Sequence record: MZ997841.1
Direction: 5' to 3' (one strand)
Length of the DNA stretch: 46,142 nucleotides
Source: Escherichia phage ULINTec7
The position numbers and the translations under genes were made by a program. The notes beneath the pieces are model-generated. The model saw only the letters and a list, made by a program, of their open reading frames with translations, was not told the origin of the DNA and did no database searches. Position 1 is the first letter of the stretch; every line of letters begins with the position of its first letter. Positions 11,456 to 43,248 of this stretch are shown here, one piece after another.

Positions 11456-13988
11456 TTGGAAAGAATTTGGAAAGAATCGCATACTTGTCATGGATGCTGA
11501 AAGTAAAGGTTTACTTGATGCTATCCGATATGGACACCGTGAAGATGTGCATATCATTTGCTGTATGGATTTGCTTACTACCGAGGAGTTTCTCTTCTTT
11601 GACCCGTATGAGATGCGTGACCCTGAAGCAAGAGAACGCCTGAAGGAATGGGAAGGTCATCAAGATGGAACCTTGGTTGACGGTGTTAACTTCCTGAAGC
11701 ACTGTGAGGCTATTGTGTCGCAGAACTTCCTAGGGTATGACGGTCTTCTCTTTGAGAAAGCATTCCCTGATATTTGGAAAGGCTTTAACTATACCGAGAA
11801 GCGCGGTAAGGGCAGACTCCGTGCTGACCTGTGTCCTATCCGTGTTGTAGATACGCTGGTGATGAGTCGTCTGCTAAACCCAGATAGACGCCTTCCTCCG
11901 CAAGCATATGCCAAAGGCATGGGTAACGTCGCCCCTCACTCAATTGAGGCGCACGGCATCCGTATAGGCCGCTATAAACCAGAGAATGAGGACTGGTCTA
12001 AACTAACTGACCACATGGTTCACCGTGTACGTGAAGACGTGGCAATTGGTCGTGACCTTTTCCTATGGCTTTACAACGGAGAGTGGACGGAGCACAAACG
12101 CCGTGGCGTGAATAAACGTACTGGCCTAGGTATTGAGACAGCCTTCCACATGGAGTCCATTGTGGCGCTGGAGATGAGCCGTCAGGCCGAGCGCGGGTTC
12201 CGTCTGGACATCGACAAGGCTTTGTCCCGATGCGAAGAATTGGACGCTAAGATTGACGAGACAGTCGCAGCGTTCCGCCCTCACATGCCTATGCGTATCA
12301 AGTCTAAACCTTTTAAACCGGAAGAAAAGAATGAAGTATGCCAACGCGCAAATGAGTATGGAGCTAGCAACAATATACCTACTGTCCTTGACCCCTCACA
12401 CTTTCTTCATGCCGAGAGACGAGGAGATCGCAAGACAGTATGGAGTGTCACTACTAAGTCTGGTGATTGGTCGGCTAGTGTCAAGAAAGACTTTCCTCAC
12501 CTTAGAGGAAACCGTAATGACACGCCAAGCATCAAGTGGATTGGCGCTTACTCGCCTGTTACTTTCGAAGAGATTCCCTTGGGTAACAGGGATACAGTTA
12601 AGCAAGTGCTCTATGATTATGGATGGAAAGGTGTTGAATTTAACGATACCGAGCAAGCGCATCTCGATGAGCACGGAGTGTTACCCAAACCTTGGAGTGG
12701 TAAGATAAATGAAAAGTCCCTTACTTTATGGCAAGAAAGAGCCGCACGTGAAGGTAAAACAGTCCCTGATTGGTGCTTGGGTATCGCTGCATGGTACATA
12801 CTCGTATCCCGTCGTGGTCAGATACTCAACCGTGGTGACGTTGAAGCCTTCAACGAGAAGGGAACGTGGCCCTCGCAGGCTGGTGTACGAAAGTGTCGCG
12901 GCCTTGTACCTGTAGCATTCAACAAGGAGCTAGGAATCAATGCGCAGCAATACTACGAGAGGTACGGATATTGGCCTACGTCTGACAAAGATGACGGAGA
13001 GTGGCGTGTTCCAGCTGTTGCTATTAGTATTGGCACTTCTACGTTCCGTATGCGTCATCGTAACGTGGTTAATATTCCTGCCCGTGGCTTGTATCCTTTA
13101 CGTGATTTATTCATAGCAGGGAAAGGCAAGCTAATCCTTGGTTGTGACGGTGCAGGTCTTGAACTGCGTGTCCTGTCTCACTTCATGAATGACCCTGAGT
13201 ACCAAGAGATTGTACTGCACGGTGATATTCATACGCATAACCAGATGAAGGCTGGTCTTCCTAAGCGTGATATGGCGAAGACGTTTATATACGCCTTCCT
13301 CTATGGCTCTGGTATAGCCAACCTTGCAGCAGTATGTGGTGTTACTGAGGAGGAAATGAAGGAAGTTGTGGCAAGATTCGAGATTGAACTGCCGTCTCTT
13401 GCACGTCTTCGTGAGAATGTTATCGCACAAGGTAACAAGTTTGGCTACCTGCAAGCACCTGATGGGCATTGGGGTCGCATCCGCATGTCTGGTGGTGAAC
13501 TTAAAGAGCACACTATGCTTAACGTATTACTCCAGATGACTGGCTCTTTGTGTATGAAATATGCATTAGTAAAGGCATTTGCAGTAATGCGCAAGGAAGG
13601 TGTAGCCTTGGATGCTATGGGAAGCCCTTGTGGTGTGGCTAACGTCCACGATGAAATCCAGATGGAAGTTCCTGAAGAAGAGGTCTTGTACCTTAACTAT
13701 GACCTACCTTTCACCTTAGAAGGGTTTGAAACAGAGAAGGCTGCTGTGAAAGCAGTGTTCGATGCAGAAGAGAAACGTGTTCATGTGGATTCTGAAGGAC
13801 GTATGTGGTCTGCTGCAAACCTCGTTAGTGTTGATGCTGATGCTGGTGTACTTCATTGTCAGCGCCGTTATCACCGTGCTGGGCATATCATTGCCGACGC
13901 CATGACTTGGGCTGGTCAGTATCTGAAGATGCGTTGCCCGATGGCAGGAGAATATAAGATTGGCACAAGTTGGAAGGAAACACACTGA
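11442..13988 (+). CDS. DNA polymerase (family A, T7 gp5-like)
   Basis: N-terminal exo motif ILVMDAESKG resembles T7 MIVSDIEAN; GCDGAGLELRVLSHF, GDIHTHNQ...AKTFIYAFLYG and HDEIQ polymerase motifs. Start is uncertain between 11442 and 11490. Confidence 0.93.
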   Translation: MLDVDWKEFGKNRILVMDAESKGLLDAIRYGHREDVHIICCMDLLTTEEFLFFDPYEMRDPEARERLKEWEGHQDGTLVDGVNFLKHCEAIVSQNFLGYDGLLFEKAFPDIWKGFNYTEKRGKGRLRADLCPIRVVDTLVMSRLLNPDRRLPPQAYAKGMGNVAPHSIEAHGIRIGRYKPENEDWSKLTDHMVHRVREDVAIGRDLFLWLYNGEWTEHKRRGVNKRTGLGIETAFHMESIVALEMSRQAERGFRLDIDKALSRCEELDAKIDETVAAFRPHMPMRIKSKPFKPEEKNEVCQRANEYGASNNIPTVLDPSHFLHAERRGDRKTVWSVTTKSGDWSASVKKDFPHLRGNRNDTPSIKWIGAYSPVTFEEIPLGNRDTVKQVLYDYGWKGVEFNDTEQAHLDEHGVLPKPWSGKINEKSLTLWQERAAREGKTVPDWCLGIAAWYILVSRRGQILNRGDVEAFNEKGTWPSQAGVRKCRGLVPVAFNKELGINAQQYYERYGYWPTSDKDDGEWRVPAVAISIGTSTFRMRHRNVVNIPARGLYPLRDLFIAGKGKLILGCDGAGLELRVLSHFMNDPEYQEIVLHGDIHTHNQMKAGLPKRDMAKTFIYAFLYGSGIANLAAVCGVTEEEMKEVVARFEIELPSLARLRENVIAQGNKFGYLQAPDGHWGRIRMSGGELKEHTMLNVLLQMTGSLCMKYALVKAFAVMRKEGVALDAMGSPCGVANVHDEIQMEVPEEEVLYLNYDLPFTLEGFETEKAAVKAVFDAEEKRVHVDSEGRMWSAANLVSVDADAGVLHCQRRYHRAGHIIADAMTWAGQYLKMRCPMAGEYKIGTSWKETH

Positions 13989-14104
13989 TGGATAGGCTTG
14001 ACATTGTTTGCCTGTTCTTCACTTTCTTTCTTACACTCCTTATGCTTGCTTGTTATGGGAGTGTGAGACTAGATATACCTGATGAAGAAGAGGGTTACGA
14101 CTAA
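13988..14104 (+). CDS. Hypothetical small hydrophobic protein (38 aa)
   Basis: ATG overlaps the polymerase stop; hand-translated. Confidence 0.25.
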   Translation: MDRLDIVCLFFTFFLTLLMLACYGSVRLDIPDEEEGYD

Positions 14105-35900: not shown

Positions 35901-36223
35901 CTTTTGGCGCTATGGGTATGATGAGTACAACTGCTGTGTTCAGCTTAGGTGGAGACTTCTTAGGCGGCCTAGGTGTTCTCCCTTCTGAGTTAGTACAATC
36001 CCGTTATGAGGCTGGCTTTCAGACTAAGGGTTTGATAGACCAAATACCACTAGTAGGTGTTGGTCAAGATGCATATCGTTTAGCAGATTCTATAACTAAA
36101 TATGCAGAGGGTGATACAGAAGGTGTAGATGTGGCACGTAGGGCTTTACGCTTAGTGCCTCTAACTAATGTAATAGGAATCCAGAACGCATTGCGTTATG
36201 GCTTAGATGAACTGGAGGATTGA
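32915..36223 (+). CDS. Large internal virion protein (gp16-like)
   Basis: 1102 aa, called by position and size. Confidence 0.65.
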   Translation: MEQDINTNWAGYVQSTPEPFSIEAAPVSAPTIRQRNELQEQVLEAKADADIIGAVGAAFQNEWLAFGGKRWYDRATADFTPQPDFEIQPEQREALRFKYGTDMMQTITEGVRSEDELNFRIQNADEDLERNKRIAQAGWAGSVATIGAAVLDPVGWVASIPTGGAAKVGLVGRAVRGAIAAGVSNAAIESVLVQGDMTRDLDDIMVALGSGMAMGGVIGAVARGRAAKLSDQGDDRAASVVRSADAGDRYIRAVADDSIGAMRVKGEEVLTEGAFDISSKGEDLLKTLQREGNSIDMAPRRWAGTLSALGTVVHSSQDASVRGLGARLFESPQGLGAQKASASLMQNTNLNRLKSADMNRFNDGFDLWLKENNINPVAGHTNSHYVQQYNEKVWEAVRIGMNESTPKSIRMAAEGQQAMYREALALRQRSGEAGFEKVKADDKYMPDIFDSMKARRQFGMHDKEDIIELFSRAYQNGSRKVPKEVADDIARAQVNRVVDATLTGRMSFEKAMSGQTKAEYEAIMRKAGFSDEEIEKMVEALDNKETRDNISNRAKMSLGLDVTQEYNGIRMRDFMNTNVEELTDNYMKEAAGGAALARQGFSTYQAALNAIDLVERNARNATKDTKAHAQFEAESANIRQSEPDYKKAQEKIEELKKRLKLKEKDEAAGLAIDEEIRQMREGLRLIMGKSIDADPQALSTKMLRRGRDITGVLRLGQMGFAQLGELANFMGEFGIAATTIALGKQFRFTSKALRSGDGFFRDKNLAEVERMVGYIGEDNWITTKGARPDEFGDVTTVRGMMAHFDQSMNSIRRAQTNLSLFRMAQGSLERMTNRQIALSFIDHLEGKKIIPQKKLEELGLTQGFMTNLQKHYDANSKGSGLLGFDTMPYAMGETLANAIRRKSGLIIQRNFIGDEGIWMNKALGKTFAQLKSFSLVSGEKQFGRGIRHDKIGLAKKTAYGFALGSIVYAAKAYVNSIGREDQDEYLEEKLSPKGLAFGAMGMMSTTAVFSLGGDFLGGLGVLPSELVQSRYEAGFQTKGLIDQIPLVGVGQDAYRLADSITKYAEGDTEGVDVARRALRLVPLTNVIGIQNALRYGLDELED

Positions 36224-37185
36224 TGAGTTATACTTTCACAGAACATATAGCCAACGGTACGCAAGTAACCTATCCCTTTAGCTTTGCTGGTAGGGATAAA
36301 GGTTATCTTCGTGCCTCAGATGTGATAGTGGAATCTCTTCAAGGTAACACTTGGATTGAGGTTACATCTGGCTGGCAACTAACTGGCACGCACCAGATTA
36401 CTTTTGATGTAGCACCAGTTGCAGGTTTGAAGTTCCGTATTCGAAGGGAAGTACAAAAGGAATATCCATACGCTGAGTTTGACCGTGGTGTTACCTTGGA
36501 TATGAAGTCTTTAAATGGTTCTTTCATTCATATACTGGAGATTACACAGGAGTTACTTGACGGGTTTTATCCAGAAGGGTACTTCATTAAACAGAATGTA
36601 AGCTGGGGCGGCAATAAGATTACTGATTTGGCTGATGGCACAAATCCGGGAGATGCAGTAAATAAAGGGCAGCTTGATGCCGTTGACAAGAAGCATACAG
36701 ATTGGAACACCAAACAGGATATTGAGATTGCTGGCCTTAAAGCAGGTATGACTTCTGGTATTGCGCACAGAACTATCCCTTGGTACACGATCGCCCAAGG
36801 AGGTGAGGTTTCCGTAAAACCTCCTTATGAATTTCAAGATGCACTAGTTTTCCTTAATGGGGTCTTGCAACACCAAATCGTAGGCGCATACTCTATAAGC
36901 AGCAACACTATCACTTTCGCAGAGCCACTTGTGGCTGGCACAGAGGTGTATGTGCTGGTTGGTAGTCGTGTGGCTACATCTGAACCTAATATTCAGTTAG
37001 AGTTGAACTTTGACTTAGTAGAAGACCAACAAGTAGTACAGATTGGCTCTGCATTTAAGTACATTGAGGTCTACCTTGATGGATTATTACAACCTAAACT
37101 TGCTTATCAGGTAGACGGTGACATTGTTACTTTCTCAGAAAGAGTACCAGAATGCCGGATGACTGCTAAGATTATCACAGCATAA
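36223..37185 (+). CDS. Tail fibre N-terminal-domain protein (tailspike adaptor)
   Basis: N-terminus TQVTYPFSFAGRDKGYLRASDV resembles the T7 gp17 N-terminal tail-attachment domain. The ORF-track start at 36220 is a TTG. Confidence 0.6.
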   Translation: MSYTFTEHIANGTQVTYPFSFAGRDKGYLRASDVIVESLQGNTWIEVTSGWQLTGTHQITFDVAPVAGLKFRIRREVQKEYPYAEFDRGVTLDMKSLNGSFIHILEITQELLDGFYPEGYFIKQNVSWGGNKITDLADGTNPGDAVNKGQLDAVDKKHTDWNTKQDIEIAGLKAGMTSGIAHRTIPWYTIAQGGEVSVKPPYEFQDALVFLNGVLQHQIVGAYSISSNTITFAEPLVAGTEVYVLVGSRVATSEPNIQLELNFDLVEDQQVVQIGSAFKYIEVYLDGLLQPKLAYQVDGDIVTFSERVPECRMTAKIITA

Positions 37186-37194
37186 GGAGGTGGG

Positions 37195-37389
37195 ATGATT
37201 AACTCCGAACTGGTAGATAGTGGTGTGAAGCTTGCGCCACCTGCACTCGTATCAGGTGGGTACTTCCTCGGTATCAGTTGGGATAATTGGGTGTTAATAG
37301 CAACATTCATTTATACCGTGTTGCAAATTGGGGACTGGTTTTATAATAAGTTCAAGATTTGGAGGGAGAAGCGTGAGCGTACACAATAA
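37195..37389 (+). CDS. Holin (T7 gp17.5-like)
   Basis: 64 aa; IATFIYTVLQIGDWFYNKFKIWREKRE resembles T7 gp17.5 VAAIAYTVVQIGAKVVDKMIDWKKANKE; one transmembrane segment and a charged C-terminus. Confidence 0.75.
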   Translation: MINSELVDSGVKLAPPALVSGGYFLGISWDNWVLIATFIYTVLQIGDWFYNKFKIWREKRERTQ

Positions 37390-37672
37390 ACATGCAGCTA
37401 CAGAGGACGAGGTTGGCATTCTGCATGGTGCTATTACCAAAATCTTTAATAAGAAAGCACAGGCAATACTGGACACTATAGAAGAAGACCCAGATGCAGC
37501 ATTGCATTTAGTGTCTGGTAAAGACATTGGAGCTATGTGTAAGTGGGTTCTTGATAATGGTATTACCGCTACACCTGCTGCACAGCAGGAAGAGTCCAAG
37601 TTATCTAAGCGCCTCAAGGCTATCCGAGAGGCATCCAGTGGTAAGATAATTCAATTCACTAAGGAGGATTGA
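37373..37672 (+). CDS. Terminase small subunit (putative)
   Basis: GTG start at 37373 with GGAGGGA SD; sits immediately before the large terminase. Confidence 0.5.
   Translation: MSVHNKHAATEDEVGILHGAITKIFNKKAQAILDTIEEDPDAALHLVSGKDIGAMCKWVLDNGITATPAAQQEESKLSKRLKAIREASSGKIIQFTKED
37466..37488 (+). promoter_or_regulatory. Phage-RNAP promoter inside the small terminase gene
   Basis: AATACTGGACACTATAGAAGAAG. Confidence 0.6.
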
Positions 37673-39570
37673 TGGCTAAGGCAAGAGAATCACAAGCGGA
37701 GGCTCTTGCCAGATGGGAGATGCTACAGGAGTTACAGCAGACCTTTCCCTATACAGCGGAAGGTTTGCTTCTCTTTGCAGATACAGTTATCCATAACTTG
37801 ATTGCAGGCAACCCTCATCTGATTCGTATGCAGGCTGATATCTTGAAGTTCCTATTCTACGGACATAAGTATCGCCTCATCGAAGCGCCTCGTGGTATCG
37901 CTAAGACAACACTATCAGCAATCTATACGGTATTCCGTATTATCCACGAACCGCATAAGCGTATCATGGTTGTATCCCAAAACGCTAAGCGAGCAGAGGA
38001 AATCGCTGGTTGGGTGGTGAAAATCTTCCGTGGCCTAGACTTCCTTGAGTTTATGCTGCCGGATATCTACGCAGGGGACCGTGCATCCGTTAAAGCATTT
38101 GAGATTCATTACACCCTACGTGGTAGTGATAAGTCTCCCTCTGTATCCTGTTACTCAATCGAAGCAGGTATGCAGGGTGCTCGTGCTGATATTATTCTAG
38201 CGGATGACGTAGAGTCGATGCAGAATGCTCGTACGGCAGCGGGCCGTGCCTTGCTTGAGGAACTGACTAAGGAGTTTGAATCTATCAACCAGTTTGGGGA
38301 TATCATTTACCTTGGTACGCCTCAGAACGTAAACTCTATCTACAACAACCTACCTGCTCGTGGCTACTCTGTTCGTATCTGGACTGCACGTTACCCCTCA
38401 GTGGAGCAGGAGCAATGCTATGGTGACTTCCTTGCACCTATGATTGTGCAGGATATGAAGGACAACCCCGCACTTCGCTCTGGTTATGGGTTGGATGGTA
38501 ATAGTGGTGCACCTTGTGCCCCTGAAATGTATGATGATGAAGTCCTGATTGAGAAGGAAATCTCTCAGGGTGCAGCTAAGTTCCAGCTTCAGTTCATGCT
38601 TAACACTCGCATGATGGATGCAGACCGCTACCCACTACGCCTGAACAACCTCATCTTCACCTCATTTGGTACAGAGGAAGTCCCTGTGATGCCTACGTGG
38701 AGCAATGACTCCATCAACATCATCGGTGATGCACCGAAGTATGGCAATAAGCCTACAGACTTCATGTATAGACCTGTGGCTCGCCCGTATGAATGGGGTG
38801 CTGTTACACGCAAGATTATGTATATTGACCCTGCTGGTGGTGGTAAGAATGGTGACGAAACAGGCGTGGCTATAGTCTTTCTGCACGGCACATTCATTTA
38901 CGTGTATCAGTGCTTCGGTGTGCCAGGCGGATACCGTGAATCGTCCCTGAATCGCATTGTGCAGGCCGCAAAGCAGGCGGGTGTTAAAGAGGTATTCATT
39001 GAGAAGAACTTTGGTCATGGCGCGTTTGAGGCCGTTATAAAGCCATACTTTGAACGAGAGTGGCCTGTAACTCTGGAAGAGGATTACGCCACAGGACAGA
39101 AAGAGTTGCGTATCATTGAGACGCTGGAGCCACTCATGGCGGCGCACAGGCTCATCTTCAATGCCGAGATGGTCAAGTCTGACCTTGAGTCAGTACAGCA
39201 CTATCCACTTGAACTACGCATGTCCTACAGCCTTTTCAATCAAATGTCGAACATCACGATTGAGAAGAACAGCCTCCGGCACGATGACCGCTTAGACGCT
39301 CTGTATGGCGCTATACGGCAATTAACTTCTCAGATAGACTATGACGAGGTTACACGGATTAATCGCCTCAGAGCGCAGGAGATGCGCGATTACATCCATG
39401 CTATGAACACACCTCACCTCCGTAGGGCGATGCTCTATGGAGATTATGGCACTGAGCGAAGAGTAACCAACACTTCCGTGGCTATGCAGCAAAGAGTGTA
39501 CGGTCAGAATTACAGGAGTAAATCGGCCAACCGAAATACACTTTCTGCAAGGATTTCAAGGACTTATTAA
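37669..39570 (+). CDS. Terminase large subunit
   Basis: 633 aa; ATPase and nuclease region with IILADDVES; position and size match T7 gp19. Confidence 0.85.
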   Translation: MMAKARESQAEALARWEMLQELQQTFPYTAEGLLLFADTVIHNLIAGNPHLIRMQADILKFLFYGHKYRLIEAPRGIAKTTLSAIYTVFRIIHEPHKRIMVVSQNAKRAEEIAGWVVKIFRGLDFLEFMLPDIYAGDRASVKAFEIHYTLRGSDKSPSVSCYSIEAGMQGARADIILADDVESMQNARTAAGRALLEELTKEFESINQFGDIIYLGTPQNVNSIYNNLPARGYSVRIWTARYPSVEQEQCYGDFLAPMIVQDMKDNPALRSGYGLDGNSGAPCAPEMYDDEVLIEKEISQGAAKFQLQFMLNTRMMDADRYPLRLNNLIFTSFGTEEVPVMPTWSNDSINIIGDAPKYGNKPTDFMYRPVARPYEWGAVTRKIMYIDPAGGGKNGDETGVAIVFLHGTFIYVYQCFGVPGGYRESSLNRIVQAAKQAGVKEVFIEKNFGHGAFEAVIKPYFEREWPVTLEEDYATGQKELRIIETLEPLMAAHRLIFNAEMVKSDLESVQHYPLELRMSYSLFNQMSNITIEKNSLRHDDRLDALYGAIRQLTSQIDYDEVTRINRLRAQEMRDYIHAMNTPHLRRAMLYGDYGTERRVTNTSVAMQQRVYGQNYRSKSANRNTLSARISRTY

Positions 39571-39590
39571 TTACTGGACACTATAGAAGG
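39567..39590 (+). promoter_or_regulatory. Phage-RNAP promoter
   Basis: TTAATTACTGGACACTATAGAAGG. Confidence 0.8.
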
Positions 39591-39690
39591 AAGGCCCAGA
39601 TAATAAGAGAAATAACAAGGATAATATAGGTTAACCTAGGTTATATAGGTATGCCTTAGTATGGGTGTACTCCTGTACACCCTATTCCTT
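39591..39690. promoter_or_regulatory. AT-rich repeat region related to the 6353-6500 origin-like element
   Basis: Shares the 12-mer GGTTATATAGGT (39639-39650 and 6415-6426) plus ATAGGTTA and CCTAGG motifs; palindrome GGGTGTAC-TCCT-GTACACCC at 39663-39682. Confidence 0.4.
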
Positions 39691-39728
39691 ACTTCCTTAC
39701 TATACTCACATAATAGGAGAGAGAGAGA

Positions 39729-40007
39729 ATGTCTAATAGTTATAGCACACAACCCCTTACAGGTAAGTCTGCTCGTAAGCAGATACAACCTGTGAGTGAA
39801 GCCCTGATGCTTCCTGTAGTTTACGAGGACACTGTTGAGAAGAAAGGTGATGTTATTAATGATGCCACCAAATCAGGTAAGCAGAAAGGAGCCATGGTGT
39901 GTCTTGATACACATGATACACTGGTTATTGCTATCGCAGTTGATGGCAAAGAAGATTCCAATTGGCTGACCACGTTATTAGCGGTCACGACTATTACCCC
40001 AGCTTAA
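39729..40007 (+). CDS. Hypothetical protein, paralog A of a tandem pair
   Basis: 92 aa; shares MSN..., LKKK.D.IN, SGKQKG.MV, IAIA and TP.A with the next ORF. Confidence 0.55.
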   Translation: MSNSYSTQPLTGKSARKQIQPVSEALMLPVVYEDTVEKKGDVINDATKSGKQKGAMVCLDTHDTLVIAIAVDGKEDSNWLTTLLAVTTITPA

Positions 40008-40019
40008 GAGGAGAATTAC

Positions 40020-40307
40020 ATGTCTAATTATGGAAACGCAGGTACTGTTACTGGTCAAGCTTTTCGAGTAAAAACTGTACAAACCACTGCAACGGCAATC
40101 CCTTTGCCTATTGTTGCTGAAGCAGACCTTAAGAAGAAAGATCACCCTATCAACATTAAACACCTATCTGGCAAACAGAAAGGCTCCATGGTTGCTGTAG
40201 AGAAAGCAGACAACTCCTTGTACATCGCTATTGCACGTGGTAGTGAACCAACTGACCCTTGGGATGCAACCACTATGGAGACGGAACCTGTAACACCTGT
40301 AGCTTAA
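40020..40307 (+). CDS. Hypothetical protein, paralog B of a tandem pair
   Basis: 95 aa; see paralog A. Confidence 0.55.
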   Translation: MSNYGNAGTVTGQAFRVKTVQTTATAIPLPIVAEADLKKKDHPINIKHLSGKQKGSMVAVEKADNSLYIAIARGSEPTDPWDATTMETEPVTPVA

Positions 40308-40328
40308 TTGTAACAGATGAGGTCAATA

Positions 40329-40673
40329 ATGCTTAACAAATATTTCAAGCGACGCGAGTTCGCTTGCCGTTGTGGGTGCGGTACATCCACTGTTGATGCT
40401 GAGGTTGATGCTGAGTTATTACATGTGCGTGAGCACTTTGGTGCTCCTGTAGTTATTACTTCTGGACACCGCTGTGCTAAGCACAATGCCAATGTAGGTG
40501 GCGCTAAGAACTCCATGCATCTTACTGGTAAGGCTGCTGACATTAAAGTGTCTGGCATATTACCTTCTGAAGTGCATAAGTATCTTACTAGCAAATACCA
40601 AGGCAAGTATGGTATCGGTAAGTATAACTCCTTCACTCACATCGATGTACGGGATGGTTGTGCACGATGGTAA
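40329..40673 (+). CDS. Endolysin, peptidase M15 (zinc D-Ala-D-Ala carboxypeptidase / L-Ala-D-Glu peptidase type)
   Basis: ITSGHRCAKHN...MHLTGKAADI...FTHIDVRD matches the His/Asp/His zinc-ligand pattern of the family. Confidence 0.7.
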   Translation: MLNKYFKRREFACRCGCGTSTVDAEVDAELLHVREHFGAPVVITSGHRCAKHNANVGGAKNSMHLTGKAADIKVSGILPSEVHKYLTSKYQGKYGIGKYNSFTHIDVRDGCARW

Positions 40674-40798
40674 GATGTGTTGAATGGTGTGAGCGTATGG
40701 TTGCCCAAGCTGCCGAGGATGGCAACTATGATGACTGGAAGAACTACTCTGACTTGTTAGCTCAATGGAAAGGGAGATGCAATGAAAAAGCTGTTTAA
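40667..40798 (+). CDS. Hypothetical small Cys-rich protein (43 aa)
   Basis: Hand-translated ORF overlapping the endolysin stop. Confidence 0.25.
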   Translation: MVRCVEWCERMVAQAAEDGNYDDWKNYSDLLAQWKGRCNEKAV

Positions 40799-40931
40799 GT
40801 CTAAGAAGGTTGTAGGTGCACTGGTTGCACTTGTTATTGCTCTTGTTTCTGTAGGTCTTGGTGTAGACCTTGGCTCTGGCACGGAATCCTCTGTGACAGA
40901 TGTGGTCTGCCAAGTGATTACCTGTGAATAA
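40782..40931 (+). CDS. Small membrane protein (49 aa), lysis-associated candidate
   Basis: N-terminal basic stretch then transmembrane segment VVGALVALVIALVSVGLGV; GGGAG SD. Confidence 0.35.
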   Translation: MKKLFKSKKVVGALVALVIALVSVGLGVDLGSGTESSVTDVVCQVITCE

Positions 40932-41145
40932 GTTTCTAGAAGTGCTGGCAGGTCTTATTGGCCTGCTTGTCTCTGCTAAGAAGAAACAAGAAGAGAAGGA
41001 GGCACAAAGTGAAGCGAATCATGTTAGTGACAATCCTGCTGATTGGTTCGCTGACCACTTCCGGGTGTCAGCAGGCGTTACCAGAGAAAGCAATGGTGAA
41101 ACCTCTGAGGCCGACGCTGACGGAAGTTTACGAGGTAGACGATAA
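40924..41145 (+). CDS. Candidate i-spanin-like membrane protein
   Basis: GTG start; N-terminal transmembrane segment FLEVLAGLIGLLVSA then a charged region; contains an out-of-frame embedded ORF. Confidence 0.3.
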   Translation: MNKFLEVLAGLIGLLVSAKKKQEEKEAQSEANHVSDNPADWFADHFRVSAGVTRESNGETSEADADGSLRGRR

Positions 41146-41218
41146 GGTCTGCTTTAGTAAGCCTGACGCTACAAAATTAGGTTTGTATATTCTTTCGCTA
41201 GAACGCGGATATAATTAA
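40958..41218 (+). CDS. Candidate o-spanin-like lipoprotein overlapping the previous ORF
   Basis: Signal-like region ending in lipobox-like LTTSGC. Start uncertain between 40958 and the internal ATG at 41021. Confidence 0.35.
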   Translation: MACLSLLRRNKKRRRHKVKRIMLVTILLIGSLTTSGCQQALPEKAMVKPLRPTLTEVYEVDDKVCFSKPDATKLGLYILSLERGYN

Positions 41219-41247: not shown

Positions 41248-41270
41248 ATTTACTGGACACTATAGAAGAG
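41248..41270 (+). promoter_or_regulatory. Phage-RNAP promoter upstream of the tailspike genes
   Basis: GATTTACTGGACACTATAGAAGAG. Confidence 0.8.
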
Positions 41271-41349
41271 GTAAGATAGCGCCGTTCTTTTGAGCGGCCT
41301 ATTACTAGCCAATCTTCATAGGGAGGGTTGGAAAGTAATAGGAGATAGC

Positions 41350-43248
41350 ATGGCTAAATTAACCAAACCTAATACTGAAGGAATCTTGCATAAAGGACAA
41401 TCTTTGTATGAGTACCTTGATGCGAGAGTTTTAACATCAAAGCCATTTGGTGCTGCAGGTGACGCCACTACTGATGATACGGAGGTTATAGCTGCTTCAT
41501 TAAACTCTCAGAAAGCTGTCACAGTCTCAGATGGTGTATTCTCTAGCTCTGGTATTAATAGTAATTACTGTAACTTAGACGGTAGGGGTAGTGGCGTGCT
41601 AAGTCACCGTTCCAGTACAGGTAATTACTTAGTATTTAACAATCTACGTGCAGGTCGCTTAAGTAATATTACGGTAGAAAGTAATAAGGAGACTGATACA
41701 ACTCAGGGGCAGCAGGTATCTCTTGCTGGTGGAAGTGATGTTACTGTAAGTGACGTTAACTTCTCAAACGTTAAAGGTACTGGTTTCAGTTTAATCGCAT
41801 ACCCTAATGATGCGCCACCTGATGGACTTATGATTAAAGGCATTCGAGGTAGCTATTCCGGCTATGCTACTAATAAGGCAGCAGGATGCGTACTTGCTGA
41901 CTCCTCAGTTAACTCACTCATAGATAACGTCATTGCTAAGAACTACCCTCAGTTCGGAGCAGTAGAGTTGAAAGGTACAGCCAGTTACAACATAGTCAGT
42001 AATGTTATAGGGGCAGATTGCCAGCATGTAACTTACAACGGCACTGAAGGGCCAATAGCCCCTTCTAATAACCTTATCAAGGGGGTGATGGCTAATAACC
42101 CTAAGTATGCAGCGGTTGTTGCAGGCAAAGGAAGTACGAACTTAATCTCAGACGTGCTAGTAGATTACTCAACTTCTGATGCTAGGCAGGCTCATGGTGT
42201 TACCGTAGAAGGGTCTGATAACGTCATAAATAATGTGCTTATGTCAGGATGTGATGGTACTAACTCTTTAGGACAAGGGCAGACTGCTACAATTGCACGC
42301 TTTATAGGTACAGCTAATAACAACTATGCGTCTGTATTTCCTAGCTACAGTGCTACAGGTGTTATTACTTTCGAATCCGGCTCTACCCGTAACTTCGTAG
42401 AGGTAAAGCACCCTGGCAGGAGAAACGACCTTCTCAGTTCTGCTAGTACTATTGACGGTGCAGCTACTATTGACGGCACTAGTAATAGTAACGTAGTGCA
42501 CGCACCTGCCTTAGGGCAGTACATAGGTAGTATGTCAGGCAGGTTCGAATGGCGGATTAAGTCCATGTCACTCCCTTCAGGAGTTCTTACTTCTGCTGAT
42601 AAGTACAGAATGCTTGGAGATGGTGCTGTGTCATTAGCTGTAGGTGGGGGCACTTCTTCTCAAGTTCGCCTATTTACTTCTGATGGTACTTCTCGGACAG
42701 TGGCCTTCACCAACGGTAACGTGCGTCTTTCTACCAGTAGCACAGGCTATTTGCAGTTAGGTGCTGATGCAATGACCCCAGATAGTACTGGTACATACGC
42801 ATTAGGTTCCGCCAGTCGAGCATGGTCTGGCGGTTTTACTCAAGCAGCATTCACTGTTACCTCAGATGCTCGGTGTAAAACAGAACCTCTTACTATCTCA
42901 GATGCCTTACTGGATGCTTGGTCTGAAGTTGACTTTGTGCAGTTTCAGTATTTGGATCGGGTTGAGGAGAAGGGTGCAGACTCAGCTAGATGGCACTTTG
43001 GTGTCATCGCTCAGCGAGCTAAGGAAGCTTTCGAACGTCACGGCATAGATGCACACCGCTATGGCTTCTTGTGCTTCGACAGTTGGGATGCTGTATACGA
43101 GGAAGATGCCAATGGCTCTCGTAAGCTGATTACACCAGCAGGTTCCCGCTACGGTATTCGTTACGAGGAAGTACTGATATTAGAGGCTGCATTGATGCGG
43201 CGGACTATTAAGCGTATGCAGGAAGCACTAGCTGCCCTTCATAAGTAA
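41350..43248 (+). CDS. Tailspike 1: beta-helix polysaccharide depolymerase-like protein with C-terminal intramolecular chaperone domain
   Basis: 632 aa from the ATG at 41350 (AGGAG SD). Repetitive Gly/Ser/Thr/Asn/Val-rich beta-helix-like sequence. C-terminus SDARCK...GIRYEEVLILEAA is homologous to the endosialidase C-terminus. Confidence 0.7.
   Translation: MAKLTKPNTEGILHKGQSLYEYLDARVLTSKPFGAAGDATTDDTEVIAASLNSQKAVTVSDGVFSSSGINSNYCNLDGRGSGVLSHRSSTGNYLVFNNLRAGRLSNITVESNKETDTTQGQQVSLAGGSDVTVSDVNFSNVKGTGFSLIAYPNDAPPDGLMIKGIRGSYSGYATNKAAGCVLADSSVNSLIDNVIAKNYPQFGAVELKGTASYNIVSNVIGADCQHVTYNGTEGPIAPSNNLIKGVMANNPKYAAVVAGKGSTNLISDVLVDYSTSDARQAHGVTVEGSDNVINNVLMSGCDGTNSLGQGQTATIARFIGTANNNYASVFPSYSATGVITFESGSTRNFVEVKHPGRRNDLLSSASTIDGAATIDGTSNSNVVHAPALGQYIGSMSGRFEWRIKSMSLPSGVLTSADKYRMLGDGAVSLAVGGGTSSQVRLFTSDGTSRTVAFTNGNVRLSTSSTGYLQLGADAMTPDSTGTYALGSASRAWSGGFTQAAFTVTSDARCKTEPLTISDALLDAWSEVDFVQFQYLDRVEEKGADSARWHFGVIAQRAKEAFERHGIDAHRYGFLCFDSWDAVYEEDANGSRKLITPAGSRYGIRYEEVLILEAALMRRTIKRMQEALAALHK

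Follow-up and report, generated by a model that had tools for sequence, protein, structure and literature searches.

A conserved lysis gene set with a candidate spanin-like pair in the Vectrevirus genome of Escherichia phage ULINTec7

The lysis genes of Escherichia phage ULINTec7 probably make up the conserved equipment with which SP6/K1-5-type podophages lyse their host in three steps, with two small overlapping genes, here called ORFs C and D, as the likelier spanin-like pair. The gene set is real, ordinary and already known for phages of this type. The analysed DNA (the window, 46,142 nucleotides, record MZ997841.1) is a Vectrevirus genome of the K1-5/K1E/SP6 group, with approximately 92-94% nucleotide identity to known phages and gene synteny shared with annotated relatives. 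The relevant features are these:

36220-37185: tail-fibre adaptor gene (PF03906)
37195..37389, + strand: holin of the T7 gp17.5 family, 64 aa (PF10746, phrog_920)
39569..39589, + strand: SP6/K1-5-type phage promoter, one mismatch to ATTTACNNGACACTATAGAAG
40329..40673, + strand: endolysin, peptidase M15A, 114 aa (PF08291, phrog_894)
40667..40798, + strand: ORF A, 43 aa, soluble (phrog_1312)
40782..40931, + strand: ORF B, 49 aa, one transmembrane domain (TMD; phrog_4712)
40924..41145, + strand: ORF C, 73 aa, hydrophobic N-terminal helix (phrog_9219)
41009..41218, + strand: ORF D, 69-aa lipoprotein precursor (phrog_8971)
41248..41268, + strand: exact-consensus phage promoter, no mismatches

The first-pass annotation placed a gp17.5-like holin at 37195, between tail-fibre adaptor and terminase, and this is borne out by matches of 37195-37389 to Pfam PF10746 (T7-family holin, E 1.5e-27) and phrog_920 'holin' (5.8e-28). 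A single hydrophobic segment and a basic C-terminus characterise the product, and records of K1-5, LL11 and ULINTec6 label the homologous gene holin or class II holin. Its 3´ end overlaps the start of the small terminase gene, which is followed by the large one, ending at 39570. The "split lysis system" proposed earlier is present as a layout, but it is not special: the same conserved T7-supergroup arrangement occurs in every relative examined, and holins encoded away from the endolysin are normal in this supergroup. In T7, holin gene 17.5 lies between genes 17 and 18, and endolysin gene 3.5 far upstream. The holin family, the position of the holin between tail-fibre (adaptor) and small terminase genes and the encoding of the endolysin elsewhere are thus common to both, which makes the split layout a trait of the lineage. 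The enzymes differ: the T7 endolysin is an early-region amidase that also regulates RNA polymerase, whereas here a M15A peptidase is encoded in a late cassette after the large terminase gene.

The M15 endolysin claimed at 40329 is likewise supported by family matches. The frame 40317/40329-40673 (an ATG at 40317 is the alternative start) matches Peptidase_M15_3 (PF08291, E 3.9e-31), phrog_894 'endolysin' (2.1e-43) and PDB 1LBU (E 8.5e-5). LysPM1, an M15A endolysin characterised by experiment (PMC13461873), has a zinc triad and (F/W)xH motif to which H64, D71, H104 and F102 of the ULINTec7 protein (our own indexing) correspond. Neither a hydrophobic N-terminus nor a signal or SAR sequence was found in the protein, which is predicted to be a cytoplasmic peptidase M15A.

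The lysis cassette is bracketed by dedicated phage promoters, of which the window holds 13 SP6/K1-5-type sites against 0 expected. The site at 39569 sits on the stop codon of the large terminase gene and heads the late cassette with the endolysin and the small ORFs; the site at 41248 opens the next unit (tailspike gene at 41290) and forms the 3´ boundary. The likeliest start of ORF A is ATG 40667, in an ATGgTAA overlap with the endolysin stop; at its 3´ end, A shares 17 nt with ORF B. ORF C starts at a GTG within the final codons of B (GTGAATAA), and D begins as AGGAGG-N6-GTG. All these junctions are kept across genera and, as far as the sequence can tell, indicate that the endolysin/A/B/C/D cassette would be translationally coupled. 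ORF A matches phrog_1312 (E 6e-19), carries a conserved CxxWC motif and is kept in Vectre-, Zinder-, Ulip-, Acade- and Gajwadongvirus relatives, with 45/34/61 substitutions at codon positions 1/2/3.

Four short ORFs after the endolysin, three of them with transmembrane or lipobox-like features, had been noticed earlier, and these features are recovered as the TMD of B, the helix of C and the lipobox of D. ORF B (phrog_4712, E 2.8e-27) has homologues in 92 clusters, all from podophage contigs of ~44-46 kb. A 9-residue N-terminus with 5 K/R precedes a 19-residue TMD and a 21-residue acidic tail (net charge -4), which contains two Cys, ends in conserved VTDVVCQVITCE and has no predicted coiled coil. 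The TMD (<H> 0.85, muH 0.14 on the Eisenberg scale) resembles those of lambda Rz and T7 gp18.5. B is predicted to be a type II (N-in/C-out) membrane protein with a periplasmic tail, and it is the sole textbook type II membrane anchor among B, C and D. Substitutions in the B-only segment fall 34/21/80 at codon positions 1/2/3, and databases label the protein either 'holin' or 'i-spanin'.

In ORF C (phrog_9219, E 6.5e-33) an N-terminal hydrophobic/amphipathic helix with KKK-rich flank is followed by the conserved core AQxEA...NPADWFADHFRV and a disordered, acidic tail; the AF2 model shows helices 2-36 and 38-45 followed by the disordered part. Across 56 sequences A27 and Q28 of the strongly conserved 20-residue core are invariant, and P38, W41, F42, H45 and F46 are conserved in at least 90%. 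The N-terminal segment has 6-13 uncharged residues (<H> 0.28-0.67, muH up to 0.65) and then 4-7 K/R. It is unlike the anchors of lambda Rz and T7 gp18.5, being shorter and more amphipathic, and export of C to the periplasm is therefore doubtful. The C-terminal part has net charge -3 here and 0 to -5 across the family. C is a candidate i-spanin of an overlapped pair, or else an accessory or cytoplasmic partner.

ORF D is the only lipobox ORF of the late region preceded by a Shine-Dalgarno sequence. The earlier suggestion of a lipoprotein-like last ORF is confirmed by its lipobox (MKRIMLVTILLIGSLTTSG followed by C, with Gln at +2), the Cys of which is invariant in 46 aligned homologues. The mature part of ~50 aa consists of a Pro-containing linker and a conserved beta-hairpin-plus-helix mini-domain with one conserved Cys (AF2 pLDDT 95-97 over residues 31-60). 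D matches phrog_8971 'Rz-like spanin' (E 9e-39), UniRef and K1-5 RefSeq name it O-spanin or Rz-like spanin, and its D-only segment shows 11/4/35 substitutions at codon positions 1/2/3. We regard it as an o-spanin candidate and predicted outer-membrane lipoprotein.

The first-pass annotation also described ORFs at 40924 and 40958 that overlap out of frame like embedded Rz/Rz1 pairs. The out-of-frame overlap stands: D is offset from C by 85 nt and read in the +1 frame. Position 40958 was rejected as the start of D, being merely the first TTG of a stop-to-stop ORF; D starts at GTG 41009, 6 nt after AGGAGG, in agreement with the 210-nt K1-5 gene. Because D continues 73 nt beyond the stop of C, the pair is "overlapped" and not "embedded". 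In the overlap, substitution patterns show constraint on both frames. Opposite the signal peptide of D lies the conserved core of C, and the conserved domain of D is encoded beyond the stop of C. As for an Rz/Rz1-like function, the +1 overlap, co-inheritance as far as Salicola phage CGphi29 and the precedent of UAB_Phi78 make it plausible; the short amphipathic anchor of C, the overlapped architecture and the pairing of D with B in curated literature and by CPT annotators keep it tentative.

Conservation of the small ORFs in relatives was checked as well. A-D are intact in 14 aligned genomes of five clades and in more distant phages, and all four recur in at least six phage genera; together with the coding-type substitution patterns, this makes the set more than chance. 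In Gajwadongvirus, Aeromonas, Edwardsiella and Vibrio phages A-B-C-D are kept beside a lytic transglycosylase endolysin, so the lysis-cassette module is independent of the enzyme. Salicola phage CGphi29 has the order peptidase, N-out/C-in transmembrane protein, C-like, D, with no B-like protein. Klebsiella phage K44PH129C1 retains holin, endolysin, A and B with neither C/D nor another plausible lipoprotein gene, and C/D are thus dispensable at least there. The PP1/phD2B sublineage has, in place of D, a Cys-less lipoprotein of 38 aa encoded upstream of the endolysin; it keeps B with both Cys lost, and lacks A and C.

The same genes are present as K1-5 gp44/gp45, K1E gp44/gp45, SP6 gene 56 with an unannotated lipoprotein ORF, and the overlapped pair of UAB_Phi78. 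Position, junctions and promoters agree, B is identical to K1-5 gp44, D differs in 2/69 residues and C in 1/73; there is no biological difference, and the window is another isolate. The spanin candidates have already been catalogued, inconsistently, as B+D in K1-5/K1E/SP6 (with the supplement entry 'SIS ... Too small?' for B) and as C+D in UAB_Phi78, where the C equivalent is the 'ovl' i-spanin (Kongari et al. 2018, BMC Bioinformatics 19:326). In the SP6 GenBank record it is the product of C that is called 'o-spanin'.

With lambda Rz/Rz1 and T7 gp18.5/gp18.7 the C/D pair shares a lipoprotein gene that overlies the 3´ part of the upstream gene in the +1 frame, an upstream product beginning with a hydrophobic helix, one conserved periplasmic Cys in the lipoprotein and a place in the lysis cassette adjoining the endolysin. 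The pair differs in being overlapped, not embedded, and in lacking sequence or fold similarity: B, C and D had no match in Pfam or NCBIfam, and Foldseek gave a best E of 4.7 against PDB and only the own family in BFVD. Lambda Rz has 153 aa and T7 gp18.5 has 143 aa; C, with 73 aa, is shorter, its amphipathic anchor is weaker and a long coiled coil is missing. D has a folded mini-domain in the AF2 model instead of the Pro-rich unstructured peptide of lambda/T7. The T7 pair lies between genes 18 and 19, whereas here the terminase genes abut and the pair follows the large one. The phiKMV-type right-end cassette, composed of pinholin, SAR endolysin, Rz and Rz1, is similarly located downstream of the large terminase gene and ends in an overlapped Rz/Rz1-like pair (classed 'overlapped' by Kongari et al. 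2018). In our phage, by contrast, the endolysin is free of SAR or signal, the holin is 3 kb upstream, and A and B are interposed. Podophage phiKT lacks canonical spanins, which are replaced by the cationic peptide gp28 'disruptin' (Kongari et al. 2018), again a small product of the lysis cassette that has been proposed to disrupt the outer membrane. This amphipathic, cationic peptide does not depend on a lipoprotein, whereas the tail of B and the C-terminal part of C are net acidic here and a lipoprotein is present. Our literature search found no experiment on any B, C or D family member.

The partner of D can be argued in two ways: on membrane topology B is the better candidate, on gene architecture and distribution C. 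A "separated" spanin of B (i-spanin) and D (o-spanin), with C as cytoplasmic or peripheral accessory or regulatory protein whose gene overlaps D incidentally, deserves attention, though we consider it rather unlikely. The N-in/C-out anchor of B is indistinguishable on the Eisenberg scale from those of lambda Rz and T7 gp18.5, which is not true of C, and the two conserved periplasmic Cys of B and one of D parallel those of Rz (2) and Rz1 (1). PP1/phD2B, where the Cys-less lipoprotein accompanies a B without Cys, fits as well, and the annotations of LL11, Premi and SP6 gene 56, the curation of Kongari et al. and the CPT annotators all follow B+D. However, B and D together offer 71 periplasmic residues with no predicted coiled coil (the curators themselves flag 'Too short'), B persists in K44PH129C1 next to no lipoprotein at all, CGphi29 combines C and D in the absence of B, and in UAB_Phi78 these authors themselves chose the C equivalent (Kongari et al. 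2018).

It is improbable, in our opinion, that there is no true spanin, D being a late lipoprotein that, for example, blocks re-adsorption of progeny or superinfection, B and/or C a second holin, antiholin or lysis-timing regulator, and the outer membrane failing otherwise. RefSeq and PHROGs do label B 'holin', a label for which we found no experimental basis. The missing homology of B/C/D to characterised spanins, periplasmic parts too short to span the envelope, the state of K44PH129C1 and the location of D directly upstream of tailspike genes agree with such a reading, and ~13% of surveyed phages lack spanins, with alternatives such as the phiKT disruptin (Kongari et al. 2018). Yet D is kept in phages of E. 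coli K1/K5, Salmonella, Klebsiella, Proteus, Pantoea, Aeromonas, Vibrio and Salicola, and such different hosts and receptors argue against receptor-specific exclusion. In transcription and translation D is also chained to the endolysin and not to the tailspike unit, for which there is a separate promoter, and a lipoprotein gene overlapping in the +1 frame is the hallmark arrangement of Rz1 (410/528 two-component spanins are embedded or overlapped; Kongari et al. 2018, Table 1). That ORF C is no gene, its frame open by chance or through constraint on D, seems hardly credible. C is missing from annotation in many records, including K1-5, K1E and LL11, and starts with GTG, lacking an obvious Shine-Dalgarno sequence; but the 77-nt C-only segment shows 26/13/41 substitutions at codon positions 1/2/3 in its own frame, the frame with its conserved core is intact in every genome examined, a plain ATG abuts the stop of B in the distant members Nufs112 and JSF38, and 121 C clusters (53-77 aa) were gene-called independently.

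We return to C/D as the more likely spanin-like pair, in the classic +1-frame overlapped Rz/Rz1 layout; B would be the real inner-membrane subunit or, alternatively, a third component coupled with C. A possible course of lysis is as follows. The gp17.5-type holin, judged by its family, would accumulate in the inner membrane and open holes late in infection. The holes would release the signal-less zinc-dependent M15A peptidase, produced from the separate late transcription unit (promoter 39569), which, given its family and intact catalytic residues, is expected to cut peptidoglycan cross-links. The four small genes chained translationally to the endolysin would supply the outer-membrane step: translation might proceed from endolysin to A, B and C, while D is started internally from its own strong ribosome-binding site. 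D would be exported, lipidated and sorted to the outer membrane, where it may engage an inner-membrane-associated partner and, like Rz/Rz1, destabilise the outer membrane or bring about its fusion after the loss of the wall. The spanin-like module is unusually short, with combined periplasmic parts of ~105 residues for C+D and 71 for B+D. The complex is probably unable to reach across an intact periplasm and would come into play only when the endolysin has done its work.

The lysis gene set of Escherichia phage ULINTec7 is real but already known, because its split layout is the norm of the T7 supergroup and its genes have been catalogued and annotated in K1-5, K1E and SP6. All the features listed in the first-pass annotation (a holin, an M15 endolysin and four short ORFs) are present in the sequence. 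Segment 37000-41400 shares 92-94% nucleotide identity with Escherichia phages ULINTec6, K1-5, LL11 and AAPEc6, and K1E matches it at 92% identity over 95% of the query; these phages belong to Vectrevirus (Molineuxvirinae, Autographiviridae). The window has the same gene order and the same gene sizes as the annotated records of K1-5, LL11 and ULINTec6. The SP6/K1-5 promoter consensus has 13 matches in the window, against 0 expected by chance, and two phage promoters bracket the unit formed by the endolysin and the small ORFs A to D that follow it:

36220-37185, tail-fibre adaptor (PF03906), followed by the holin and then by TerS and TerL
37195-37389, holin, 64 aa
39569-39589, phage promoter with one mismatch, 5' bracket of the endolysin/A-D unit
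40317/40329-40673, M15 endolysin
40667-40798, plus strand, ORF A, ATG start, 43 aa, soluble
40782-40931, plus strand, ORF B, 49 aa, membrane protein
40924-41145, plus strand, ORF C, GTG start, 73 aa
41009-41218, plus strand, ORF D, GTG start, 69 aa, predicted lipoprotein
41248-41268, phage promoter, exact consensus, 3' bracket of the endolysin/A-D unit

The lysis system had been described as split. The holin is indeed remote from the endolysin, but this is nothing special, as the same layout is found in every relative examined and is normal for the T7 supergroup. T7 itself has its holin gene, 17.5, between genes 17 and 18 and encodes its endolysin in another place. The holin proposed at 37195 holds up: it matches PF10746 over its full length (95.5 bits against a cut-off of 25.4, E 1.5e-27) and phrog_920 (5.8e-28), which makes it a member of the T7 gp17.5 family, located between the tail-fibre adaptor and terminase. 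The order adaptor-holin-TerS-TerL is identical in K1-5, LL11, ULINTec6, PP1 and K44PH129C1.

The endolysin was also correctly recognized. It belongs to Peptidase_M15_3 (M15A; PF08291, 107.8 bits against a cut-off of 23.2, E 3.9e-31), matches phrog_894 "endolysin", and has the M15A type enzyme 1LBU (E 8.5e-5) as its sole PDB relative by sequence. Direct reading of the 114-aa sequence finds the His-Asp-His zinc triad and the (F/W)xH motif (H64, D71, H104, F102-x-H104). Their counterparts in LysPM1, an experimentally characterised M15A endolysin, are H63/D70/H104 and F102; muralytic activity has been shown for only a few other M15A endolysins (PMC13461873). The N-terminus carries no hydrophobic stretch, which rules out a secreted or SAR endolysin working with a pinholin in the style of KBNP1315.

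Two paralogous proteins of 92 and 95 aa (39729-40007 and 40020-40307) open the endolysin cassette. In relatives they go under the name "acetyl-CoA acetyltransferase" (phrog_2725); they are far too short for a thiolase, and neither Pfam nor NCBIfam gives this name any support. Klebsiella relatives carry much longer proteins of 178-233 aa at the same position. A perfect 8-bp stem-loop, GGGTGTACtcctGTACACCC, at 39663-39682, separates the late promoter at 39569 from the first gene of the cassette and may serve for RNA processing or weak termination. Elsewhere in the window, a 38-aa hydrophobic ORF, MDRLDIVCLFFTFFLTLLMLACYGSVRLDIPDEEEGYD, starts at the stop codon of the DNA polymerase gene (13988-14104); it belongs to a conserved family (phrog_15860, E 6.5e-28) and contains a lipobox-like MLAC. 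The early left-end region holds three direct repeats of about 62 nt (1244-1305, 1556-1617 and 1819-1880), which show 61-77% identity to the reference copy and have a common GCTCTTTAACAAT core.

We collected the region of the small ORFs from 14 genomes of five clades (Vectrevirus, Zindervirus, Ulipvirus, Acadevirus and a second Klebsiella clade) and later added Gajwadongvirus, Pantoea, Aeromonas, Edwardsiella, Vibrio and Salicola phages. ORFs A, B, C and D are intact in 14 of the 14 genomes, and all four also occur in five of the added phages (Aer_P220, an Edwardsiella phage, MR4, JSF38 and Nufs112). Salicola phage CGphi29 has only C and D of the four, and three further relatives, K44PH129C1, phD2B and PP1, lack C and D. 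Minimum numbers of substitutions at codon positions 1/2/3, counted on the nucleotide alignment of the 14 genomes, are 34/21/80 for the B-only segment, 26/13/41 for the 77-nt C-only segment in the frame of C, and 11/4/35 for the D-only segment. Constraint is uniform (13/11/14) in the part of the overlap that codes for the conserved core of C, AQxEA...NPADWFADHFRV, opposite the signal peptide of D; the conserved domain of D, KPTLTxVYEVDDKVCFSKPDATKLGLYILSLERGY, lies mostly past the stop codon of C. Two genuine genes that share a stretch of DNA would be expected to look like this. The idea that C is a non-coding artefact was rejected on three grounds: its substitution pattern by codon position, its conserved core, and the ATG with which it begins in distant members.

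The start of A is corrected here to 40667, the most likely position; the endolysin/A junction there reads ATGgTAA, and A and B overlap by 17 nt. In the enterobacterial clades C starts with GTG within the last codons of B (GTGAATAA); in Nufs112 and JSF38 it has a plain ATG abutting or overlapping the stop of B. From these junctions we infer a translationally coupled chain running from the endolysin through A and B to C. Translation of D begins inside the chain, at a strong ribosome-binding site of its own. Pfam and NCBIfam contain no family for any of the four small ORFs. In a collection of 5.8 billion proteins, profile searches yielded 121 (C), 78 (D) and 92 (B) clusters. Their members all share the same small size and nearly all sit on podophage contigs of about 44-46 kb, which marks the three families as specific to this lineage of podophages. 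None of these searches brought up distant relatives with clearer features or canonical partners, and a scan of IMG/VR found the same clades. The tblastn count for B is left out, as so short and low-complexity a query under-reports its distribution.

The ORF now called D had been placed at 40958, which is only the first TTG of a stop-to-stop reading frame. Its true start is the GTG at 41009, six bases past AGGAGG; with its end at 41218, the gene codes for 69 aa. The claim that it forms an embedded pair with the ORF at 40924 is thus half right: the two overlap out of frame, by 137 nt in the +1 frame, but the arrangement is overlapped, not embedded. D begins 77 nt past the end of B and shares the promoter-bounded unit of the endolysin, adjoining or overlapping either candidate i-spanin gene within the lysis cassette. 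Absence of a lipoprotein signal had been named as grounds for dropping the spanin assignment. D, however, passes a lipobox pattern scan: its signal peptide, MKRIMLVTILLIGSLTTSG followed by CQ, has KR in the n-region, a hydrophobic core, TSG directly before the cysteine, and Gln, a residue other than Asp, at +2. Among 46 D homologues the lipobox Cys is invariant and the preceding SG nearly so. The mature protein is predicted to consist of a linker of about 20 residues and a beta-hairpin-plus-helix mini-domain (pLDDT 95-97) that has a single conserved Cys. No homology to an o-spanin characterised by experiment turned up: Pfam and NCBIfam gave nothing, and Foldseek with the D model returned nothing from PDB and only D's own family from BFVD; the name of phrog_8971 for D is a bioinformatic label only. 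A unimolecular spanin resembling T1 gp11 was rejected, as the C-terminus ...KLGLYILSLERGYN has no hydrophobic stretch of TMD length.

Which protein would serve D on the inner-membrane side is less clear-cut. B has five K/R among its first nine residues, followed by 19 uncharged residues and an acidic tail (the VTDVVCQVITCE tail, about 21 residues long) that ends in a conserved motif with two Cys. Across the family its 19-residue TMD has Eisenberg <H> of 0.74-0.91 and muH of at most 0.18, with 3-5 K/R before and none after, an N-terminal type II anchor like those of lambda Rz (<H>/muH 0.84/0.12) and T7 gp18.5 (0.75/0.04). The N-terminus of C, with 6-13 uncharged residues across the family, is less hydrophobic and more amphipathic than these two (<H> 0.28-0.67, muH 0.17-0.65; 4-7 K/R on the C-side, 0-2 on the N-side). 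We relied on the Eisenberg comparison because the controls behaved there; Hessa-type insertion energies are weak evidence, as they also gave poor scores to two proteins known to lie in the membrane, T7 gp18.5 and the gp17.5-type holin. TMHMM accepts the UAB_Phi78 homologue of C (Kongari et al. 2018, PMC6139136). AlphaFold2 models C (56 sequences, mean pLDDT 64) as a long helix (2-36), a short helix (38-45) over the conserved motif NPADWFADHF, and a disordered acidic tail.

B is the only one of the two with a canonical type II anchor, and its two periplasmic Cys together with the one of D echo lambda Rz and Rz1. For C speaks its gene, which overlaps the candidate o-spanin gene in the +1 frame from Vectrevirus to Salicola CGphi29; such a layout is a hallmark of Rz/Rz1, as 410 of 528 two-component spanins in the catalogue are of the embedded or overlapped type (Kongari et al. 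2018, PMC6139136). The cassette of CGphi29 runs peptidase, a 62-aa N-out/C-in TM protein (phrog_9685, not B-like), C-like protein and D. Size counts against both candidates. B has no sizeable helical periplasmic domain, and its 21-residue tail gives B+D only 71 periplasmic residues, too few for the span; C has about 55 residues past its hydrophobic segment, a helix that ends at residue 45 instead of a sizeable coiled coil, and no homologue longer than 77 aa, and C+D reach about 105. Neither sum comes near lambda Rz+Rz1, which total about 170 periplasmic residues.

C and D disappear together, but their co-loss was discounted as evidence of partnership because a single deletion in these physically overlapping genes takes out both. 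Klebsiella phage K44PH129C1 (L056) keeps a gp17.5-type holin, the M15 endolysin, A and B and has neither C nor D, nor any other Shine-Dalgarno-preceded lipobox ORF in its whole genome; it appears, as judged from its genome, to do without a spanin, which counts against B+D and C+D alike. The PP1/phD2B sublineage, which speaks for B as the partner, lacks A, C and D. In place of D it has, immediately upstream of the M15 endolysin, a conserved lipoprotein gene of 38 aa behind an AGGAGG ribosome-binding site, with a mature part of about 21 residues (CxIVxDSENV..TD..YKxGL, no further Cys); a 45-aa B-like gene is kept downstream, having lost both Cys. This arrangement recurs on five independent metagenomic contigs. 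In local coordinates of each region, the gene lies at:

41333-41449 in PP1 (L057)
1385-1501 in phD2B (L012)
around 2017-2145 in the metagenomic contigs (L058-L062)

Provided that D acts as a spanin, we favor C as its inner-membrane side, at somewhat less than even odds; B is a serious but weaker candidate, and a joint role of both is improbable.

Existing annotation reflects the same ambiguity. The spanin catalogue lists K1-5, K1E and SP6 as "separated" two-component spanins and SP6-like UAB_Phi78 as an "overlapped" pair, 39883-40090/39980-40166, and its curators flagged B+D as "Too small?/Too short", so that the shortness of this candidate pair has already been questioned (Kongari et al. 2018, PMC6139136). 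The UAB_Phi78 pair corresponds to the C equivalent and D. RefSeq names B "holin" and D "Rz-like spanin", CPT records of LL11 and Premi have B as i-spanin, and the authors of Nufs112 named C "Rz-like" and D "Rz1-like". In SP6 (AY288927.2) B is "i-spanin" and gene 48 is "o-spanin", though the translation of gene 48 is the C product, with no Cys and no lipobox; the true lipoprotein ORF, 39671-39880, was left unannotated:

39607-39804 in AY288927.2 (3608-3805 in region L019), SP6 gene 48, coding for the C product

Earlier genome papers on SP6-like phages noted only the absence of a T7 gp18.5 homologue, and we found no experimental work on the lysis genes of SP6, K1-5 or K1E in the literature.

A possible course of lysis can be read from the families and anatomy of these proteins. 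The gp17.5-type holin, by its family membership, would permeabilise the inner membrane. The cytoplasmic M15A peptidase, with its catalytic residues intact, would then escape and degrade peptidoglycan. Finally the four small proteins A to D, produced at a constant ratio to the endolysin, may complete lysis at the outer membrane, as anatomy and comparative genomics suggest, with D as the subunit anchored there and C, B or both on the inner-membrane side. The A-B-C-D module occurs with an M15 peptidase or with a lytic transglycosylase, which argues that its step is independent of the wall-degrading chemistry, and the short periplasmic parts suggest that the complex engages only after wall removal. 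In Gajwadongvirus-type relatives, where the module follows a lytic transglycosylase in place of the M15 peptidase, A and B are separated by an additional ORF of about 100-110 aa (111-134 aa from stop to stop):

419-823 in Nufs112 (L021), annotated CDS 512-823
520-855 in MR4 (L023)
605-940 in JSF38 (L026)

A bolder idea, which we hold to be rather unlikely, is that B, C and D constitute a lineage-specific minimal device for outer-membrane disruption, different in kind from Rz/Rz1. An outer-membrane lipoprotein with the folded mini-domain modelled for D would cooperate with one or two very small inner-membrane proteins, and the device would form only once the wall is gone and turgor presses both membranes together. 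Because its periplasmic parts are too short for the intact envelope, assembly would have to follow endolysin action.

A lysis set of this kind would be annotated by homology, and as a genome feature it matters little. Annotations within the family nevertheless disagree, with B called "holin" or "i-spanin", C unannotated or (in SP6) "o-spanin", and D often missing, and annotation pipelines carry these naming errors into genomes of therapeutic phages. The A-D family, with its E. coli and Salmonella hosts and 44-kb genomes, is a tractable test case for the shortest working spanin-like system. If the minimal device is true, it would give lysis a built-in order of events, and PP1-type phages would use a related version made of a 21-residue mature lipopeptide and a Cys-less B.
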